From Chiloscyllium plagiosum (lineage: Eukaryota), in the NCBI RefSeq assembly GCF_004010195.1, contig NC_057718.1:61420301-61483176 (forward strand): a DNA stretch of 62,876 nucleotides, written 5' to 3'. Below the pieces are notes generated by a model. The model searched no databases. It worked only from the letters and a program-made list of their open reading frames with translations, and was not told the origin of the DNA. Below are positions 4,855 through 62,876 of the stretch, one piece after another. Both the position numbers and the translations under genes were made by a program. Each line of letters opens with the position of its first letter. The first letter of the stretch is position 1.

Positions 4855-5590
4855 CCCACCAGAGATATATTTCCCTCCCCATCTCTATCCGCTTTCCCTA
4901 AATACCGTTCCCTCTGCGACTACTTTGTCAGGTCCACGCCACCTAACAATCCACCCTCCCCTCCCGGCACCTTCCCCTGCCACTGCAGGAATTGAAAAAC
5001 CATGCACCCACACCTCCCCCCAAGGCCACAAAGGAGCATTCCACATTCATCAAAGTTTCACCTGCACATCCACCAATGTCATGTACTATATCCATTGCTC
5101 CCGATGCGGTCTCCTCTACATTGGGGAGACAGAACACCTACTTACAGAGCACTTCAGGGAACATCTTCAGAACACCTGCACAATCAATCCCACTACCCCA
5201 TGGCCGAACACTAACTCCCTCTCATTCTGCTGAGGGCATGGGGGTCCTGGACCTCCTCTATCGGCACTCCCTCACCACCTGACGCCTGGAGGAAGAATGC
5301 CTCATCGTCCGCCTTGGGATCCTCCAACCCCATGGCATCAATCTAGATCTTCCTTCCCACCTATCTGCGCCACCCTCCTCTCCGACCTATCACCTTTACC
5401 CCACCTCCATCCACCTATTGCACTCTCGGCTACCTTCACCCCAGACCCACCCCCCTTTCCATTTATCTCTCCAACCCCGAGGCTCCCAGCCTCATTCCTG
5501 ATGAAGGGCTTTTGCCCAAAACGTTGATTTTCCTGCTCCTCGGATGCTGCCTGACCTGCTGTGCCTTTCCAACAACCCACTCTTGACTGT
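4855..5590 (+). mobile_element. 5'-truncated Penelope-like element (GIY-YIG region plus pLTR/HHR)
   Basis: FTCTSTNVMYYIHCSRCGLLYIGET...FREH GIY-YIG motif in ORF 4925-5233; ctgatga-a-gggcttttgccc-aaaacgtt at 5498-5525. Confidence 0.88.
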
Positions 5591-7855: not shown

Positions 7856-8349
7856 CCAACCTCACTCCTTTAGTCACTGGGATCATATTTCAACTGGAAT
7901 TTCAACCTTGTAGCCCTTCAGTTGGGTAATCAACTATAAGGGGAACAGAAACAAGTACAATCCAGTTTTTAACCAATATCCAAACTCACACACGAACATA
8001 TGCCTACACTTAAACCCATAGCTGTGTGCACTTACTGGTTGCAATCACGAAGCTGCAATTCAGAAGCATTGCTCATTGAACAATGAGGTCCATTCTGGAC
8101 CTTTGCATTGCTGAGCTCTGCAAACTGAGCACAGGCATACGGATGGAATCCAAGACTTCCCTGGCCTGAACAACTAAGTACCCTGTTAATAGGTTCCAAC
8201 TTCAGACCAAGACTTGGAATAACATTATGCTTAGTTTTATGTTCCTGTTTTTTTTTGTCTGTAACCCTATAAATTCAAAGTTTGTGCTAAGATTTGTAGC
8301 TCGGGTGCTCGTTGTTGTGGTTCTGTTCGCCGAACTGGAAGTTTTTGTT

Positions 8350-8389
8350 GCAAACGTTTCGTCCCCTGGCTAGGCGACATCATCAGTGC
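8350..8389 (-). ncRNA. Minimal type-I hammerhead ribozyme motif
   Basis: Exact reverse complement of 9049-9088. Confidence 0.8.
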
Positions 8390-9048
8390 TTGGGAGCCTC
8401 CTGCGAAGCGCTTCTTTGATGTTTCCTCCGGTTTTATAGTGGTCTGTCCCTGCCGCTTCCGGTTGTCAGTTTCAGCTGTCCGCTGTAGTGGTTGGTATAT
8501 TGGGTCCAGGTCGATGTGTTTGTTGATGGAGTTTGTGGATGAATGCCATGCCTCTAGGAATTCCCTGGCTGTTCTCTGTCTGGCTTGCCCTATGATAGTA
8601 GTGTTGTCCCAGTCGAATTCATGTTGCTTGTTGTCTGCGTGTGTGGCTACTAAGGATCGCTGTTCGTGTCGTTTCGTGGCTAGTTGATGTTCATGTATGC
8701 GGATTATTAGCTTTCTTCCTGTTTGTCCTATATAGTGTTTGTACTATACACTACTAATGTAGTGTACAAAATACTATGCAAGGACTGCACTAAACACTAT
8801 ATAGGACAGGCAACATGAATTCGACTGGGACAACACTACTATCATAGGGCAAGCCAGACAGAGAACAGCCAAGGAATTCCTAGAGGCATGGCATTCATCC
8901 ACAAACTCCATCAACAAACACATCGACCTGGACCCAATATACCAACCACTACAGCGGACAGCTGAAACTGACAACCGGAAGCGGCAGGGACAGACCACTC
9001 TAAACACTGGAGGAAACATCAAAGAAGCGCTTCGCAGGAGGCTCCCAA

Positions 9049-9088
9049 GCACTGATGATGTCGCCTAGCCAGGGGACGAAACGTTTGC
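9049..9088 (+). ncRNA. Minimal type-I hammerhead ribozyme motif
   Basis: GCA-CUGAUGA-U-GUCgCCU(agcc)AGGgGAC-GAAA-CG-UU-UGC: stem I GCA/UGC, stem II, loopless palindromic stem III (AAACGUUU). Confidence 0.8.
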
Positions 9089-9610
9089 AACAAAAACTTC
9101 CAGCTCGGCGAACAGAACCACAACAACCCTATAAATCTTCATCCTCAAGTAGGTGTCTGCCTCCCTTTAAAGGTAAAATTAGATTGAGCATTCCCGATTC
9201 TGACAGCTCTCTGAATGAAGAACTTTCTCTTCTAGCTCTAACTCTCTGCATCTCTTACAGCTACCATTCTTATAAATGCTGTAGAACCATACAACACAAC
9301 AAGTACTGAAACTATGCTTCCTGAGAATGTGATGATTTTTGTAAGTTGTTTAAAACCAGAAAGACTTGCTGCAATGATGACCAAGAGATGCCATTGTCAG
9401 TTACAAGTCACAAGTTGAGTTTGGATATCAGTTATAACCATTGATGTGCCATCGCAGGGTTTCATGTTAATGAATCTTCTACAACAGCCAATGACTTACC
9501 ACCAAGCTTGATGTCAATTAGTTTTACATTCCTAATGGTACCATGCATTAAGGGGTTGCCATTTGTAACTTCAGCAGAGAATTTGAACTGGCCAATCAGC
9601 CCATTGGTTA

Positions 9611-11952: not shown

Positions 11953-14096
11953 ACCAGATTCCTCCCTGGGAAAATTGTGTTTACCAACACCATAGCGAGT
12001 GGTTAAAGAATGAAGGTAATGGTTGGTAATCCGCACAAGGTGAATGAATGCCAACTTTTCTGGGGCACTCTCAGGTTAATTCTTTGTATCAGTTCATGAG
12101 AGCTGCTTTTGTTGACAAAATCAGTGAACTAATTTATTAAATGACTATATAGTGAAGTTACATTCAATATAAATGCTACGGAACTGGAATTTTGTTTTCA
12201 CTGAAATGGATAAAAGAAATAATATCTTTAAACAGACAAGAACCAATTGGAAAATGAAAATTGCAGTCAGCTTTAATCAACATCACATTTTAAAAAATGT
12301 AAACCTGAAATAGTCCTAGTTTCCAAAAGCTTTTTTTCGCTATAAAGTTTTCTGTATTAATGTCAGTCCTACACTTCTGGCCTAGATCACAGACAGAGAC
12401 ATCAAGTACCAACCCCAGCTATTAAAACTTTGGTTAGTTGGATATTTCAGTTCTTTCAAGTTGTATCAAGGTATGAGATAGGGAGAGGTTCCATGGTAGA
12501 CACAGAACTCTACCACTTATGTTCTTGATATCTAATGCCCAGATTACATATGTTACCCTGACATACATGACATAAATAGTGGAATAAACTAGTTATTTAA
12601 TTGGCAACTTTAAAAATGCTGGATGCTACATTGGAGAATTATCATTGATAAGTATTTTCTCTGCTGTGTAGGAAACGACTATTCAAATAACATGACAAAC
12701 CTTAAACAAAAGCGAACAGCTTAAACTTTTGTTCACATTGGCTCCTGTCAATCAATGTGTAGTGAGGTGTGATTATTTCAGAAATTGGTCCTGAGTTATC
12801 TGCAGTCTATAACCTCTCGGTTGATTGATTGATTGACAGGTGACTATGTAAGTAATTTTTGGTTATGATTCATGGCAACATCTTAATAAATGACACTACA
12901 AGCTGATGATTTTCAGGTTCTGATTAATTTAAGAATATCTTTTTAATCATTATTTTCCAGTAATTCAGATTTATGATGCCAAACTGTTGAGTTTACTTAC
13001 AGAGTAAGGCTTATGAATTGTACTATGCAGGAAGATCGCATGCAAATTTGGCCTAATTTCTTTCATAATAACATTGGCCTGAATGAGCTTTGCACTGCCA
13101 GACTACCTGAGCACACAACAGGGGGCAGTGTGCAGTGTTTGCTGATAACATATAGTGTAACCAGCCACTCTTAAAGGACTGCCTTTACTGCCTTCCAAAG
13201 GTACACAAAGCCAACACACCGGGACGTCCCATCATGTCGGGCAATGGGACCCTATGTGAGAATCTCTCCGGCTATGTGGAAGGCATCTTGAAACCTCTTG
13301 TACCGGGGATCTCCAGCTTCTGTTGCGACACTACGGATTTCTTACAGAAACTCAGCACCAACGGACCAGTCGAACCGGGAACATTCATCGTCACAATGGA
13401 CGTTTCCTCACTTTACACCAGCATCCCCCATAATGATGGCATCATGGCAACAGCCTCAGTACTCAACACCAACAATTGCCCATCTCCAAACACCATCCTA
13501 CAACTCATCCGCTTTTATCCTTGATCACAACGTCTTCACCTTTGACAACCAGTTCTTCATCCAGACACACGGAACAGCCATGGGGACCAAATTTGCACCC
13601 CAATATGCCAACATTTTTATGCACAGGTTCGAACAAGACTTCTTCTCTATGCAGGATCTCCAACCAACATTGTACATCAGGTACATTGACGATATTTTCT
13701 TCCTCTGGACCCACGGCAAGGAGTCACTGATAAAACTACACAGTGACATCAACAAGTTTCATCCCACCATCAAACGCTTGACTGTCTGTCTCAGTCTTGG
13801 ATACATGCATCTCCATCAAGGATGGACACCTCAGCACCACACTCTACCACAAACAACCTCAATGCTACACTTCTCCAGCTTCCACCCAAAATATATTGAA
13901 ACAGCCATCCCCTATGGACAAGCCCTATGCATACACCGGATCTGCTCAGATGAGGAGGAACGTGACGGACACCTGGAAGTACTCAAGGATGCCCTCACAA
14001 GAACGGGGTACGATGCTCAACTCATCCACTGCCAGTTCCGACGTGCCACAGCAAGGAACCGTAATGACCTCCTCAGGAGACAGACACGGGCTGCAA

Positions 14097-14327
14097 NNNN
14101 NNNNNNNNNNNNNNNNNNNNNNNNNNNNNNNNNNNNNNNNNNNNNNNNNNNNNNNNNNNNNNNNNNNNNNNNNNNNNNNNNNNNNNNNNNNNNNNNNNNN
14201 NNNNNNNNNNNNNNNNNNNNNNNNNNNNNNNNNNNNNNNNNNNNNNNNNNNNNNNNNNNNNNNNNNNNNNNNNNNNNNNNNNNNNNNNNNNNNNNNNNNN
14301 NNNNNNNNNNNNNNNNNNNNNNNNNNN
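14097..14327. other. Assembly gap (231 N) flanked by a ~660 bp direct duplication
   Basis: 13435-14096 is repeated at 14328-14988. Confidence 0.97.
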
Positions 14328-15639
14328 GATGGCATCGCGGCAACAGCCTCAGTACTCAACACCAACAACTGCCAATCTCCAAAACCATCCTACAACTCAT
14401 CCGCTTTTATCCTTGATCACAACGTCTTCACCTTTGACAACCAGTTCTTCATCCAGACACATGGAACAGCCATGGGGACCAAATTTGCACCCCAATATGC
14501 CAACATTTTTATGCACAGGTTCGAACAAGACTTCTTCTCTATGCAGGATCTCCAACCAACATTATACATCAGGTACATTGGCGATATTTTCTTCCTCTGG
14601 ACCCACGGCGAGGAGTCACTGATAAAACTACACAGTGACATCAACAAGTTTCATCCCACCATCAAACTCTTGACTGTCTGTCTCAGTCTTGGACACATGC
14701 GTCTCCATCAAGGATGGACACATCAGCACCACACTCTACCACAAACAACTTCAATGCTACACTTCTCCAGCTTCCACCCAAAACATATTAAAACTGCCAT
14801 TCCCTATGGACAATCCCTATGCATACACCGGATCTGCTCAGATGAGGAGGAACGTGACGGACACCTGGAAGTACTCGAGGATGCCCTCACAAGAACGGGG
14901 TACGATGCTCAACTCATCCACTGCCAGTTCCGACGTGCCACAGCAAGGAACTGTAATGCCCTCCTCAGGAGACAGACATGTGCTGCAACTGACAGGGTAT
15001 CCTTCGTTGTTCAGTACTTCCCAGGAGCTGAAAACTTACGCCATGTTCTTCGTGACCTGCAACACATCAATGAGGATGAGCACCTCACCAAGACCTTCCC
15101 CACACCTCCACTATTTGCCTTTAAACAACCGCCAAACCTCAAACAGATCGTTGCTCATAGCAAGCTGCCCAGCTCTCAGTACAACTCCATACAACCCTGT
15201 CACGGTAGGCACTGCAAGACTTGTTAGAGTATGGACATAGATACCACCATTACACGTGGGGACACCTCCCACCTTGTACATGGCAGGTACTTATGTGACT
15301 CAGCCAACGTTGCCTACCTTATACATTGCAAGCAAGGATGCCCGGAGGCATGGTACATTGGGGAAACCGAGCAAAGGCTACGACTACAGATCACCGCACA
15401 ACAATCAACAGAAGTGTTCCTTCCCAGTTGGGGAACACTTCAGTGGTCCAGGCCATTCAGCCTTGGACCTCCAGGTGACCATCCTCCAAGTGGACTTCGG
15501 GATAGGCAGCAGAGAAAAGTAGCTGAGCAGAGGCTGATAGCTAAGTTCGGTACCCATAGGGAGGGCCTCAATTGGGACCTTGGGTTCATGTCACATTACA
15601 GGTGACCAGGTTATAGTCCAACAGGTTTAATTGGAAGCA

Positions 15640-15674
15640 CACTAGCTTTCGGAGCGACGCTCCTTCATCAGGTG
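15640..15674 (-). ncRNA. Minimal type-I hammerhead ribozyme motif
   Basis: Exact reverse complement of 16030-16064. Confidence 0.85.
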
Positions 15675-16029
15675 ATAGTGGAGGGCTCAATCGTAACACA
15701 GAAGTTATAGCAAAAATTTACAGTGTGATGTAACTGAAATTATACATTGAAAAATTGATCGTCTGTTAAGCCTTTCATCTGTTAGAATACAGTGATCACA
15801 AAACCCTTTTTTTTAAAGTTGCATTCTCAGGATAGCTGTTAACAATGGTGACAACAATGCAACTTTTAAAAAAAGGGTTTTGTGATTTACACATGAAAGA
15901 AGTGAAACTATCACAGTATTCTAACAGATGAAAGACTTAACAGAATCAATTTTTCAATGTATAATTTCAGTTACATCACACTGTAAATTTTTGCTATAAC
16001 TTCTGTGTTACGATTGAGCCCTCCACTAT

Positions 16030-16064
16030 CACCTGATGAAGGAGCGTCGCTCCGAAAGCTAGTG
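16030..16064 (+). ncRNA. Minimal type-I hammerhead ribozyme motif
   Basis: CAC-CUGAUGA-A-GGAGC(guc)GCUCC-GAAA-GC-UA-GUG: stem I CAC/GUG, 5-bp stem II, palindromic AGCU stem III, predicted cleavage after CUA. Confidence 0.85.
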
Positions 16065-16169
16065 TGCTTCCAATTAAACCTGTTGGACTATAACCTGGTG
16101 TTGTGTGATTTTTAACTCTTAAAGGAGACCTTCATTCAGTGGAGACTGACTTCTGTAGGATCTGCATAA

Positions 16170-33373: not shown

Positions 33374-33478
33374 ATTCCTGATGAAGGGCTTATGCCTGAA
33401 ACATCGAGTCTCCCCCTCCTTGGATACTGCCTGACCTGCTGTGCTTTTCCAGTGCCACACTTTTTGACATGTGTGAAT
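33374..33478 (+). mobile_element. Solo PLE pLTR module with HHR motif
   Basis: ctgatga-a-gggc-ttat-gcct-gaaacatc; flanked by the direct repeat atgtgaatat / gtgtgaatat. Confidence 0.78.
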
Positions 33479-48486: not shown

Positions 48487-48941
48487 CCTCCATTGCCAAA
48501 CCCTAAACACCTGACCCCTTAAGGAAGAATGCCTCATTTTCTGCCTCGGCACCCTGCAACCACACAGGATTAATATGGATTTCACCAGTTTCCTCATTTC
48601 CCCTCCCTCCACCTTATCCCAGTCCCAAGCCTCCAACTTGGCATTGCCCTCTTGCCCTCTTATACATTGTCTTCCCCATCTATCCGCTCCACCATCCCTC
48701 TCCGACCTATCGCCTTCTCTCCCACCTTCATCTACCTATTGCATTCTCAGCTGCCTTTCCCCTAGCCAAACACCCCTCCTATTTATCTCTCAGCGTCCTG
48801 GCCCACAAGCCTCATTTCTGATGAAGGGCGTATGCCCGAAACATCGATTCTCCTGCTCCTCAGATGCTGCCTGACCTGCTGTGTATTTTCCAGCATCACA
48901 CTCTCAACTCTGATCTCCAGAATCTGCAGTCCTCGCTTTCT
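48487..48941 (+). mobile_element. PLE 3' end with HHR inserted into a CR1 fragment (48363-49014, minus)
   Basis: ctgatga-a-gggc-gtat-gccc-gaaacatc at 48818-48845; the CR1 resumes across the insertion at ccctg|tctac. Confidence 0.85.
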
Positions 48942-49679
48942 CCTGTCTACATGTGACACAAACGTCATAGAATTATGCACCTTGAACCCCTAGGTCTCTC
49001 TGTTTATAATACTCATGGTGCTATATGTAAGCCACATCTGTCTCGTTACAAAAATAGTAATCATTGGGGTAACCCTTGAGAATAGTATTGCAATCAATCA
49101 TGTCAAATTGCAGAAGGTGAGTTACAGCAGAAAGACTGCAAAGTTATCACTGCTTTTGGAGTATAAGATCACAGTCAAAATTATAATTTCATTGATTCTA
49201 ATTAGCAGCTATGATGGAGAACTGATTATAGATGTGCTTTTACTTGAGCAACCAGAGCAGAATACTCAGTGGATGAGATCTCAGCTGAGACTGCTTCTGA
49301 GCAACCTCATTGGATGTCACTGGAGTCTGAAGCTTTACATTGCTGGGTGTGCCAAAATAATCTTACACGCAAATTCAGCTTTTGAGTCAAGTGTCCAGCC
49401 AAAGGACTTCAGATTGGAAAAATAAAGTTGCTTTATTTCCTATTTGGCATCAATTTACCACTGAAGTCACACAGAAGTTACAAACACTTGAGAAAGGTTA
49501 TGAACATTTCAGTCATAGTGATGGGCAGTTTTGCATTTTGAGTTTAATGCATAGTGATTACATTATATGAGCACTACTGATGACATGTCAAAATAAAAAT
49601 TTCCTTGCTAATTTTGTTTGAAAGAATTAAAATAATCCAAAGTGGTAATGTTTCTTAAAAAAATACCAGGAAAATTAAA

Positions 49680-53973: not shown

Positions 53974-54376
53974 TTTGGTTTATTATTGGCTCTCAAACAC
54001 TTTGGGTTGAATATTATATTATTTTGGTGAAGTGCAAGTCACATTGAGTTGTATGGAGTTATTGTCATTGCAAGGCCCAGTGAGTTTCCTGACTGTATTT
54101 TAGCAAACTCACCTCATTAACCACCTATCACATCCCTATGGTATCTCTCACATCTGATTACCACCTAATCTTGCCATATGCCATTCCCAAAACAACTTGC
54201 CATTGAGCAGATATCCCAGAATTCATCTCCTTTGATATCTTTAAAAGGTATCAAAAGCTGCACTTGACCTACTTGGCCAGGAACACCTCAGTGAAAGCTA
54301 TCCCTCTTGCCTTGACTGAGGCCTGCTGACAACCATGACAAAGGCAAGACAGCGGTAATATAAGCCTGGTATCTCT

Positions 54377-55204
54377 TAGAACATGGAACATTACAGCGCA
54401 GTACAGGCCCTTCTGCCCTCAATTTTATGCCAACTTGTGGAACCAATCTGAAGCCTCTCTATCCTACACTATTCCATTTTCATCCACATGTTTATCCAAT
54501 GACCATATAAATGCCCTGAAACTTGTTGAGTCTACTATTCTTGCAAGCAGTGCGTTCTATGTCCCTACTACTTTCTGAGTAAAGAAACTATCTCTGATAT
54601 TTGTCCTATATCTACCACCCCTCAATTTATAGCTGTGTACCCTCATGATAGCCATCACCATCCAAGGAAAAAGGCACTCACTGTCCGACCTATCTAAACA
54701 TCTGATTATCTTGTATGTCTCAATTAAGTCACATCTCAACCTTCTTCTCTCTAACGAAAACAGCCTCAAATCCCTCAGCCTTTCCTCATAACACCTTCCC
54801 TGCATACCAGGCAACATCCTCGTAAATCTCCTCTGAATCTTTTCCAAAGCTTCCACATCCTTCCTATAATGCCATGACCAGAACTGTATGCAATACTCCG
54901 AGTGCAGCTGCACCAGAGTTTTGTATAGCTGCAGCATGACACCATGGTTCCGAAACTCAATCCCTCTACCAATAAAACCTAACACACTATATGCCTTCTT
55001 AACAACCCTATCAACTCAGGTGGCAACTTTCAGGGATCTATGTTCATGAACACCAAGATCTCTCTGCTCTTCTGCACCACCAAGAATCCTACCATTAGCT
55101 CAGTACTCTTTATTCCCCTTACTCCTTCCAAACTGAATCATCTCACACTTTTCTGCATTAAACTCCATTTGCCACCTCTCAGACCAGCTTTGCAACTTAT
55201 TTAT
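54377..55204 (-). mobile_element. 5'-truncated CR1 LINE
   Basis: WQMEFNAEKCE, LQLYKTLV, RRRLRCDLIETYKII. Confidence 0.93.
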
Positions 55205-55440: not shown

Positions 55441-55626
55441 ACCAGGTTATAGTCCAACAGCATTATTTGGAAGCAATAGCTTTTGGAACACTGCTCCTTC
55501 ATCAGGTAGTTGGTTGTCCGGTGCTCCGAAAGCTAGTGCTTCCAAATAATCCTGTTGGACTATAACCTGGTGCAGTATGATTTTTAACTTTGTACACTCC
55601 AGTCCAACATCGGCATCTCCAAATCA
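55441..55626. mobile_element. Mini palindromic PLE pLTR element with HHR remnants
   Basis: Inverted arms accaggttatagtccaacag / ctgttggactataacctggt, minus-strand HHR, 3' half of a plus-strand HHR (gctccgaaagctagtg), full tail; same family as 15606-16117. Confidence 0.88.
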
Positions 55627-59049: not shown

Positions 59050-60300
59050 ACGTACAAATTAGGGGCAGCAATAGGCAATTCTGTTCTTCAAGTCTGTTCA
59101 ACCATTCAATGAGAACATGACGGATCTGTGTTTCAAATTCCACATTCCCATCAGAACACTATACATTGCAAATTTCACATTGCCCTTGACAACCTTTGAT
59201 TCCCTTATCTAGCAGGAATCCACCTCTGCCTTAAAAATATTTTGTGATCCCTACTTCCATTTCCTTATAGGGGAGATCCCCTCACTCCTGTCCTGCTTGG
59301 CTGACCAGTTCTAGACTGACCCACAAGAGGAAACATTTTTTCCAAGCCCCCCCTAGTCAAGCTTATTCAGGATCTTATACATTGCCATAGGTTCAACCTC
59401 TCACTCTTCTAAACTCCACTTTAAATAAAAAGCTCAACCTGCCCACTCTTTCCTCTTAACACAGTCTACACATTCTACATTTCAGTCTAGTAAACTGCTT
59501 CTGAGTTACCTCTAATGCATCCTTCCTTAAGGAGACCAAAACTGCATGGAATATTTGAGATGTGACTCACTCATGTCTGTATAAGTGAACCATAACGAAC
59601 TCACATTTATGTTCAATGCATTATATTCAGCATTTCAAGATGGTGCAAGAGCATGCCGACACTTTGAGTATAACACACAAAAAACACTTTTCACTGTATT
59701 TTTATATACATGTGACAATAAATATAAAACAAAATTCCTCTCATAATAAGGGATAACATTCTAATAACCTTTTTAATGACTTGTTGTGCCTGCACATCAA
59801 CTAATTGTGTGTCATTCATCAGAACACCAAGATCCCTCTGCACCTGAGATTCTAGCAGTCATTCTCCATTAGATATGGTCTTTGTTTTAATTCTTCCTGC
59901 CACTATGAACAATTTTACATTTTCAGACATTGCACTCTACTCACCACATTTGTGCCCACTGACTCAACCTCGTCCTTGATATGTCATCTTCACAACCTGT
60001 CCTATGTATCTTTGTGTTATTTGCAAATCTAGACACCGTGTCTTCAATACCCCATATAAGTCATTGGTATCAATCATAAAATGTTGAGGGAGCAAGCTAA
60101 CATCTTGATTCTAGATAACTCTTCATCAGAGCCGACTCAGCTCTGACGAAGTTGTCTGGACTTAAAAGGTTAGATTGTTCTCTCTCTGTGGATGCTTTCT
60201 AACCTGCTGTGATCTCCAGCAGTTGTTGTTTTCAGTATCGATTCCAGCATCTGCAGTAATTTGCACCTCCATAAAATGTTGAGGGCCTACACAGATCTCA
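59050..60300 (-). mobile_element. Old CR1 LINE fragment (interrupted)
   Basis: Antisense tail at 59060-59120, ggagaccaaaactgca (QFWSP), tttgcaaatct (FA). Confidence 0.75.
60091..60269. mobile_element. 179-bp ORF-less element with two back-to-back HHR motifs and a perfect 16-bp TSD
   Basis: TSD cataaaatgttgaggg at 60075-60090 and 60270-60285; minus gct-ctgatga..ttagc, plus gct-ctgacga..ttaga, then pLTR tail gattccagcatctgcagt. Confidence 0.82.
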
Positions 60301-60866
60301 GTAAGAATCCAGCAGCTAAAAATAATGCAAAGACAGTGTTGTGGAGAAAATGGATGCCTCTACAGTACTACTTATAGATCAGATGCATGGGTGTTTCCCC
60401 TATTCTCAAAGCTCCTTTGTTAAGACCCTCCAACCTCATGTCGTTTTGCAGTATAGTGGATTAGCACCGCCATTCCATATCAATTCCCCATCTCCTTAGG
60501 GTCAGACATTGAACCTAGGATCAGGCCTATCTGTATTTAATCACTGTACCAGGGCCTAAAATGGTAGATTGAAGCCCAAACCCATTCCTGAATCTGCATC
60601 AAGAAAGACCCTGTTGAAGTCAGAAATCAGAACACCCAGGATCAAGCTCCATGTGTTTGGACTTGCCCTAGGATAGGTACTTGGCTTTCAACCTAATTTA
60701 GGAATGGAAACCAACTCTTAGGAATAAACACCTCTTGCTCCCTGTGATTGGACCAACCATCAAATGCTTCTTGCTTCAGTGCTGCATTTGAGACAGGGGG
60801 ATTAACAAGGCTGAAAGATGCATGATATGGAGCACAGAAGGAAACCTAGACTTACTCAGTCAGTAA

Positions 60867-61254: not shown

Positions 61255-62843
61255 GCTATCATTAATGTTTCAAAAGTAACAATGAGAAGGATTTGAGGAA
61301 CTGGTATTAAATCGACATGGTACAGTTAGGGCAATTGAGAGTTACAAGTCAGCCAGGAAAGACCTAAAGAGAGATCTAAGACGAGCAAGGAGGGGACATG
61401 TTGGCAGATAGGATCAGAGAAAACCCTGATAGGTTATAAGTGATAAAAGAATGATGAGAGTAAGATTAGGGTCGAGAGTGTGATGCTGGAAAAGCACAGC
61501 AGGTCAGGCAGCATTCGAGGAGAATCGATGTTTCAGGCAAAAGCCCGTCATCGTGATAGGAATAATTTGATTAGGGACAGTCAACATCATTTTGTGAAGG
61601 GCAAGTCGTGCCTCATAAACCTGATTGAGTTCTTTGAGAAGGTGGCCAAACAGGTGGATGAGAGTCAAGATGTTGACGTGGTATACATGGATTTCATTAA
61701 GGCGTTTGATAAAACTCCCCATGGTAGGCTACTGCACAACATACGGAGGCATGGGATTGAGAGTGCTTTCGCAGTTTGGATCAGAAATTGGCTAGCCGAA
61801 AGAAGACGGGGGTGGTGGTTAATGGGAAATGCTCATCCTGGAGTTCAGTTACTAGTGGTGTAACTAGTGGTGAACTGTTTTGGGTCCAATACTGTTTGGC
61901 ATTTTTATAAATGATCTGAATGAGGGCGTAGAAGGATGGTTTAGTAAATTTGCGGACGATACTAAGATTGGTACAGTTGTGGACAGTGCTGAAGGATGTT
62001 GTAGGTTACAGAGGGACATACATAAGCTGCAGAGCTGAGCTGAGAGGTGGTAAATGGAATTTAATGCAGAGAAATGTGAGGTGATTCACTTTGGAAGGAC
62101 TAACAGGAATACAGAGTACTGGGTGAATGGTAAGATTCCTGGTAGTGTGGATGCGCAGAGAGATCTCTGTGTCCACGTACATAGTTCCCTCAAAGGTGCC
62201 ATCCATGTTAATCGGGTTGTTAAGAAGGCATATGGTGTGTTAGCTTTTATTGGTAAAAGGATTGAGTTTCGGAGCCACAAGGTCATGCTATAGCTGTACA
62301 AAACTCTAGTACAGCCACACTTGAAGTATTGCATAAAGTTCTGGTCATGGCATTGTAGGAAGGATGTGGAGATTTTGGAAGGGTTCAGAGGAGATTTACG
62401 AGGATGTTGCCTGGTATGGAGGGAAGGTGTTATGAGGAAAGGCTGAGGGATTTGAGGCTGTTTTTGTTAGAGAGAAGAAGGTTGAGACGTGACTTAATTG
62501 AGACATACAAGATAATCAGACGTTTAGATAGGTCGGACAGTGAGTGCCTTTTTCCTTGGATGGTGATGGCTATCATGAGGGTACACAGCTATAAATTGAG
62601 GGGTGGTAGATATAGGACAAATATCAGAGATAGTTTCTTTACTCAGAAAGTAGTAGGGACATAGAACGCACTGCTTGCAAGAATAGTAGACTCACCAAGT
62701 TTCATGGTATTTAAATGGTCATTGGATAAACATGTGGATGAAAATGGAATAGTGTAGGATAGAGAGGCTTCAGATTGGTTCCACAAGTTGGCATAAAATT
62801 GAGGGCAGAAGGGCCTGTACTGCGCTGTAATGTTCCATGTTCT
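61255..62843 (+). mobile_element. 5'-truncated CR1 LINE containing a minus-strand pLTR/HHR module at ~61472-61552
   Basis: SQHHFVKGKSCLINLIEFF, YMDFIKAFDK, KFADDTK, tail tgttccatgttcta. Confidence 0.93.
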
Positions 62844-62876
62844 AAGAGATACCAGGCTTATATTACCACTGTCTTG
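62384..62876 (+). repeat. Inverted ~98% duplicate of 54345-54837 including non-LINE flank
   Basis: 9 mismatches counted over ~490 bp; shared flank agagataccaggcttatattacc(a/g)ctgtcttg beyond the CR1 tail. Confidence 0.93.

Follow-up and report, generated by a model that had tools for sequence, protein, structure and literature searches.

The 179-bp element enclosed by a 16-bp direct repeat at 60075-60285 is very probably the outcome of a single old integration event of an endonuclease-bearing Penelope-like element (PLE), belonging to the known type of insertion in which an inverted copy is joined to a copy carrying a tail. It consists of the 3' pseudo-LTR (pLTR) end of an abundant hammerhead-bearing family, in two copies placed head to head. 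Its junction is not common to its family, its AT-rich 16-bp target is duplicated, and the palindrome at its centre is best read as having been made at integration. Positions are those of the window, i.e. the whole stretch of DNA analysed (62,876 nt), in which the locus comprises the following features.

59763-60303, minus strand: decayed LINE reverse-transcriptase region interrupted by the element, colinear with other copies once the insert and one copy of the target-site duplication (TSD) are removed
60075-60090, no strand: left TSD, 16 bp, exact repeat, with the arm alignment extending 5 nt into it
60091-60135, minus strand: 5'-truncated pLTR end in inverted orientation, carrying a minimal hammerhead that has decayed (arm alignment, motif scan)
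60136, no strand: head-to-head junction centre, 1 nt, crossed by orthologous contigs of three species
60137-60179, plus strand: sense arm with a decayed minimal hammerhead (arm alignment, motif scan)
60180-60269, plus strand: tail, 90 nt, remainder of the family 3' end, on one arm only (contig depth)
60270-60285, no strand: right TSD, 16 bp, same as the left (exact repeat)

Architecture of the insertion and its target site

The exact 16-bp direct repeat (60075-60090 and 60270-60285) encloses 179 bp, as an earlier note on this DNA had claimed, and these divide into an inverted arm of 45 nt, a centre of 1 nt, a sense arm of 43 nt and a tail of 90 nt, not the ~95 nt given before. Nor does the ~7-nt spacer of that description hold, as the homologous arms lie 1 nt apart and the boxes of the two hammerheads 13 nt apart, a 7-nt loop appearing only in the RNAfold structure. 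No other exact repeat of 16 nt or more is found at 50-1000 nt spacing in the window, leaving aside a duplicated block at 13.4-15.0 kb, and the probability of such a repeat by chance is about 2e-7 (10 nt of slack allowed per end). The arms, 60091-60135 inverted against 60137-60179, align with a local score of 47, the top of 2000 shuffles being 31, and the element thus has an inverted 5'-truncated pLTR copy head to head with a sense end. Four of the last five letters of the left TSD match the continuation of the family, which gives the inverted arm a microhomology at its outer edge and explains why other family copies align leftward to 60086, and the first three letters of the right TSD are the 3'-terminal letters of the family; microhomology is therefore present at both junctions.

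The element interrupts a LINE that we take, from its motif, to be of CR1 type, and five further copies of this reverse-transcriptase region lie within the window. When one TSD copy is kept and the insert removed, the LINE realigns through the junction with the other copies. In an 18-nt junction test, which excludes a sixth region that has no alignment at the junction, the empty site scores better in four of five LINE copies, clearly so in three (10.5/5.5, 9.5/5.5 and 8.5/3.5) and marginally in one, the last being a tie; whole-alignment scores under lenient scoring gave no discrimination between empty and filled site. Because the LINE is colinear and the 18-nt test favours the empty site, the 16-bp repeat is a true target-site duplication. 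A pair of LINE-like reverse-transcriptase regions, 54345-55204 and 62018-62876, lies in inverted orientation ~7 kb apart and brackets the element; their identity is 97% across 507 nt and drops to 83% in the 363 nt that follow.

An abundant family whose copies do not share the centre

Contigs from three related species (A, B and C) were aligned to 59900-60499 at 80% likeness, with 64-84% of each DNA run sampled, and 3505, 4295 and 2805 contigs aligned in the three runs. Summed depth, which is not a copy number, is close to 10,000 over the left arm and reaches 125,000 over the tail, and the family of the element is very abundant. Across the bins of 60180-60259 tail depth is 30,000-125,000, the lowest bin having 15,800, and family contigs exit at 60263-60268 (loose ends at 60264 and 60268), from which it follows that the tail extends to the family 3' end. 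This end resembles that of a sister family at 48805-48945 (similarity score 64, shuffle maximum 41), upstream of which there are GIY-YIG-like remnants; among the three PLE-like fragments submitted to Pfam, one protein gave PF01541 at E 0.073, below the Pfam cut-off, and two gave nothing. The element is putatively assigned to the PLEs on its motif, its layout and this sister family with its weak GIY-YIG match, no ORF of its own family having been seen. A 24-nt motif from the tail has 0 exact matches in the metagenome contigs searched. One RNA run aligned to 59900-60499 as well, a poly(A) single-cell library of which about 2% was sampled, gave 44 reads among 12,955,460 records, in both directions, with no common start or end and none at least 95% alike; as these reads derive from paralogues and such a library loses small or circular RNA, they have no bearing on expression.

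The same alignments bear on a quite different explanation, raised in the earlier note, that the element is a non-autonomous, retrozyme-like replicating unit that has a ribozyme in either polarity and is copied between loci, its centre staying fixed, by PLE proteins. Depth at 60140-60159 is 239, 219 and 155, whereas the left arm has 11,933, 9,388 and 8,058 (ratios of 2.0, 2.3 and 1.9%), a comparison in which the right side is lowered because the sense arm is more diverged and paralogues therefore prefer the left arm. At 60145-60148 depth falls to ~7, 3 and 8 contigs, a count that takes in the locus itself and a number of ordinary sense copies that begin at 60137. At 60132, 131, 139 and 126 contigs run into other sequence, with low agreement (0.40-0.44). 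Of 75 joints in total 15 were listed, and nine of these 15 connect the inverted arm with the tail, at nine different pairs of places with 1-4 contigs per run and with short sides of 21-39 nt; joints on opposite strands were set aside as ordinary copies split across two arms. The intervening strings (48 in total) differ in all 12 cases listed. These distinct joints and differing strings indicate that other arm-plus-tail copies exist, with other junctions. As joints of this kind skip up to 108 nt of the element, the earlier description of it as the smallest of its type is true within the window but not beyond it.

A whole unit, centre included, shared by many copies was not found in the contig tables of the three DNA runs. 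The question of whether the centre is shared or unique is thus largely answered in favour of unique centres, given the ~2% centre depth and the varied junctions in three species. A few contigs beyond the locus do cover 60134-60148, which a replicating unit would predict, and trans mobilisation of PLE ends is described as possible in the part of PMC3846280 available. However, almost no contig beyond the locus covers the centre, other copies join elsewhere, and the non-LTR retrozymes are described as tandem arrays in which every unit has its own hammerhead. We regard a replicating unit as extremely unlikely. Abortive, stereotyped products of PLE integration, the other possibility that had been raised, are supported by these data and have a layout that is published as typical of PLE insertions.

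Age of the insertion and lack of constraint

Single contigs cross the left flank, the TSD, both arms and the centre in all three species, and the right junction is seen in contigs of A and B, not C. A and B differ at 13 of 597 letters (2.2%) and A and C at 9 of 329 (2.7%), against ~14-20% between paralogues (about 15-23 letters per 100-130). As the centre and left flank are common to three species that are 2-3% apart, the insertion is old; it long predates the species split, and nothing in it suggests constraint. Occupation of the same site in three species would also be expected of a functional RNA hairpin or ribozyme kept by the host. Yet the GAAA box is missing from both motifs, species B and C have A at 60148 (G8), which breaks the sense CUGANGA box in two of the three species, and between species the copy has changed at the same rate as the sequence around it. 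We find such a retained function barely conceivable.

The two TSD copies match at 16 of 16 positions, but between the arms there are 10 mismatches in 43 columns and one indel (Fisher p 0.05, or 0.09 when two clear CpG sites are left out), a contrast cleaner than an origin at the same age predicts and one that counts against the single-event reading. It would be accommodated if the insert were a secondary copy, i.e. an already decayed fold-back stub brought from another locus through read-through RNA in trans or by templated repair. The contrast is borderline, however, and may reflect selection, since the earlier note picked out the element for its perfect TSD. Contigs at least 99% alike number only 8 of 3505, 14 of 4295 and 5 of 2805, even with flank contigs included, and both ends of the element lie at family-typical or microhomologous points without captured flank. 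A secondary copy is in our view very unlikely, and we retain a single integration followed by decay.

Decayed hammerhead motifs

Hammerheads were called by pattern scan and by comparison with Cervera and De la Pena (2014). CUGANGA boxes are found at 60129 on the minus strand and 60143 on the plus strand, with no GAAA within 30 nt of either. The minus arm has CUGAUGA at 60129-60123, AAGA in place of GAAA at 60106-60103 and GUU at 60101-60099, and the plus arm has CUGACGA at 60143-60149, a 2-nt deletion in helix II and AAAA in place of GAAA at 60164-60167; each arm stops 6 nt upstream of its own CUGA box. The CUGANGA boxes and helix I are thus kept and the GAAA is decayed. Since neither CUGANGA box is followed by GAAA, the earlier view that both minimal-hammerhead cores are decayed is correct, and, judged by sequence, an intact self-cleaving core is lacking. 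An Rfam search of the whole window at E up to 1 gave no hammerhead match and one unrelated weak match.

There is one hammerhead per strand, without tandem units, and in the predicted fold each strand's hammerhead is paired with its own antisense copy (-56.3 and -49.7 kcal/mol, RNAfold). This arrangement also argues against a replicating unit, and on these models the ribozymes would be passengers of the insertion. Identity as a retrozyme was considered and rejected on the single hammerhead per strand, the lack of tandem units and the lost GAAA.

Other fold-backs and hammerhead stubs in the window

The element had been placed in a size series with structures at 8275, 15606 and 55441. The inverted arms of these three are real (98%, 100% and 92% alike) and the first is indeed 850 bp, but 55441 does not qualify as a double ribozyme, because the sense arm there begins inside helix II and has no CUGANGA. 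The structure at 8275 (8263-9136) is a Poseidon-like, young insert of 850 bp with an exact 12-bp TSD, intact hammerhead boxes, the tail on the left and the end of a GIY-YIG-like ORF within its arms, and its centre contains a further small inversion (8724-8740 and 8792-8808). At 15605-16117 the arms are alike throughout 155 nt and further inverted segments are nested; this structure and that at 55441 belong to the same family as each other, with a common outer arm end and different centres, and neither has an exact TSD over 6 nt in the nearby ranges searched. That three families in the window have the same layout is a point in favour of a replicating unit.

The structure at 15605-16117 is immediately preceded by the 3' end of the GIY-YIG-like ORF of another PLE (~15000-15600). 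Nearby, 13435-14090 and 14328-14980 form a near-identical direct duplication with an offset of 892-893 nt, flanking a gap of 231 N at 14097-14327, and either an overlap in the assembly or a PLE copied in tandem may account for it. Hammerhead stubs of different families lie in the same orientation 132 nt apart at 33378 and 33510. Among members of the sister PLE family those at 1697, 33370 and 61552 (minus strand) start at most 4 nt from CUGA, and those at 5487 and 48807 keep the upstream region.

An analogous family in metagenome contigs

Metagenome contigs were searched for two divergent hammerhead boxes 1-30 nt apart, a pattern that selects short centres and is uninformative on their frequency. 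It is present at no fewer than 119 loci, most of them repeats of many different hammerhead families and some of them chance matches. Of the 119 loci listed, 52 belong to one unrelated but analogous family, with 50 distinct sites and 45 distinct centres; a few have a second arm of only 9 nt. Four centres recur at two or three sites, as a replicating unit would require. They are, however, short near-palindromes whose arm lengths differ (for example 45 against 87 nt and 37 against 91 nt), which fits convergence. Separately, three of the listed loci (L005, L043 and L044) have an identical 12-nt palindromic centre in two different hammerhead families, as expected if a self-complementary 4-mer in helix I is a point at which joining converges.

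Where the tail is on one arm, an adjacent exact repeat of 9-16 bp is found in 16 of the 30 loci listed, and in these the short arm ends 80-95 nt from the box in 11 and 23-45 nt from it in 4; the short arm of the 179-bp element ends 39 nt from its box, within the latter group. Short-arm microhomology in the listed loci is mixed, at 0-11 nt. In the 31 of 50 listed loci in which both arms are at least 70 nt, an arm differs less from its own partner than from other arms (7.5 against 11.4, p 0.002), and in 19 of those 31, the 12 more diverged being dropped, 29 of 47 non-majority letters occur on both arms, where 2.5 would be expected. Such shared private letters point either to a single template from which both arms were made or to conversion at a later time.

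Arm ends at helix I

A stronger claim, which we advance only tentatively and hold to be rather unlikely, is that the twin-hammerhead stub is a defined product, in which cDNA synthesis ends at the 5' edge of helix I, at an RNA 5' end or a structural stop, and the molecule is then copied back into the inverted arm. Three observations point this way: both arms of the 179-bp element end 6 nt upstream of CUGA, three of the five members of the 5498 family start at most 4 nt from the CUGA box, and the listed loci of the analogous family have arms that share non-majority letters far beyond expectation (29 of 47 against 2.5). Ordinary length-skewed truncation could take the place of a defined 5' stop, and gene conversion between arms that of one shared template. 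An HMM scan of the window gave 13 ends at E below 0.02, eight of them seeds (best E 0.41 in the reversed-window control), and by eye three of the 13 clearly keep a long upstream region, in a small sample in which tail-only copies are harder to detect. A crowding of 5' ends at helix I, i.e. a hotspot, is possible and, like the private variants common to paired arms, has a bearing on the way these elements integrate. Were the defined-product reading true, the length of the insert, SINE-like and moved in trans but not propagating, would be dictated by the hammerhead, in several families and across animals that are not related to one another.

The family's upstream sequence near 60133-60136 has, on the sense strand, a pyrimidine-rich run ending in CAG before helix I that resembles a splice acceptor, and both arms of the 179-bp element retain 4 nt past the CAG point. 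In the part of PMC4209133 available, the intron end of the Penelope element of D. virilis is mapped just before helix I.

Proposed assembly of the insert

Under the preferred reading, of one PLE integration, a GIY-YIG/RT protein acting in cis or in trans would make staggered nicks 16 nt apart, and the bottom-strand nick would prime at the family 3' end, through the 3-nt match, to give a cDNA of 133 nt that stops 6 nt past the hammerhead. The inverted 45-nt arm would be a second copy of the same template segment, made by fold-back of the cDNA or, alternatively, with the top-strand nick serving as primer at an internal site through the 4-of-5 microhomology, and fold-back and two-nick priming are indistinguishable at this locus. 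The two halves would then be joined at the centre, and the product, without promoter region or ORF, would have decayed neutrally.

The 179-bp locus itself, a single dead copy from a very abundant family, matters little. Of more value is the class, as thousands of stubs with TSD, centre and arm ends constitute a natural record that could separate fold-back from two-nick priming. An amplified centre would have meant a new kind of retrozyme, which the data do not support.

Relation to known systems

Our search of the literature, which covered main texts and few subscription journals, found no paper on such stubs in cartilaginous fish, and the supplements of PMC4209133 and PMC11167929 may show such short copies. 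Among known systems the non-LTR retrozymes (Cervera and De la Pena 2020; Li et al. 2026; PMC7229834 and 10.64898/2026.07.22.740005) are, in the portions of these accounts available, non-coding like the 179-bp element, with a type I hammerhead derived from a PLE pLTR. They are, however, head-to-tail tandem repeats with a hammerhead in each unit, of the same polarity, active and forming circular RNA, whereas the element is single, head-to-head and dead. The minimal hammerheads of metazoan PLEs, as presented in the available text of Cervera and De la Pena (2014, PMC4209133), are of type I with a short helix I and no real helix III, as here, and close pairs on opposite strands are described; those dual motifs are ~100-700 bp apart, in contrast to the 13 nt between the present boxes, both of which are without GAAA.

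A mechanism is offered by PAc, the Poseidon protein of Anolis, for which the accessible part of Frangieh et al. (2024, PMC11167929) reports nicking and extension of both strands and a preference for AT-rich targets, with two internal start sites that define the tail and with hammerhead cleavage dispensable. It belongs to a different family, and inverted products are not reconstructed in that part of the paper. In Arkhipova et al. (2013, PMC3846280), again as far as the text is available, inverted pLTRs with TSDs of 8-10 bp are reported, junction palindromes are read as self-priming and trans mobilisation is described. Craig et al. (2021, PMC8557442), in the section accessible, give an adjacent inverted 5'-truncated copy with a tail of 30-40 bp as typical of PLEs and call the way in which such insertions are built undefined.

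Compared with the insertions of EN+ PLEs as they appear in these partial accounts, the 179-bp element differs in having no ORF, a TSD of 16 bp where the rotifer cases have 8-10 bp (9-16 bp in the analogous family) and a tail of 90 nt, longer than the 30-40 bp of PMC8557442, which counts against the reading as a single PLE event. It agrees with them in its head-to-head inverted 5'-truncated copy, its junction palindrome, the extension of one arm, the short TSD and the hammerhead in the pLTR.
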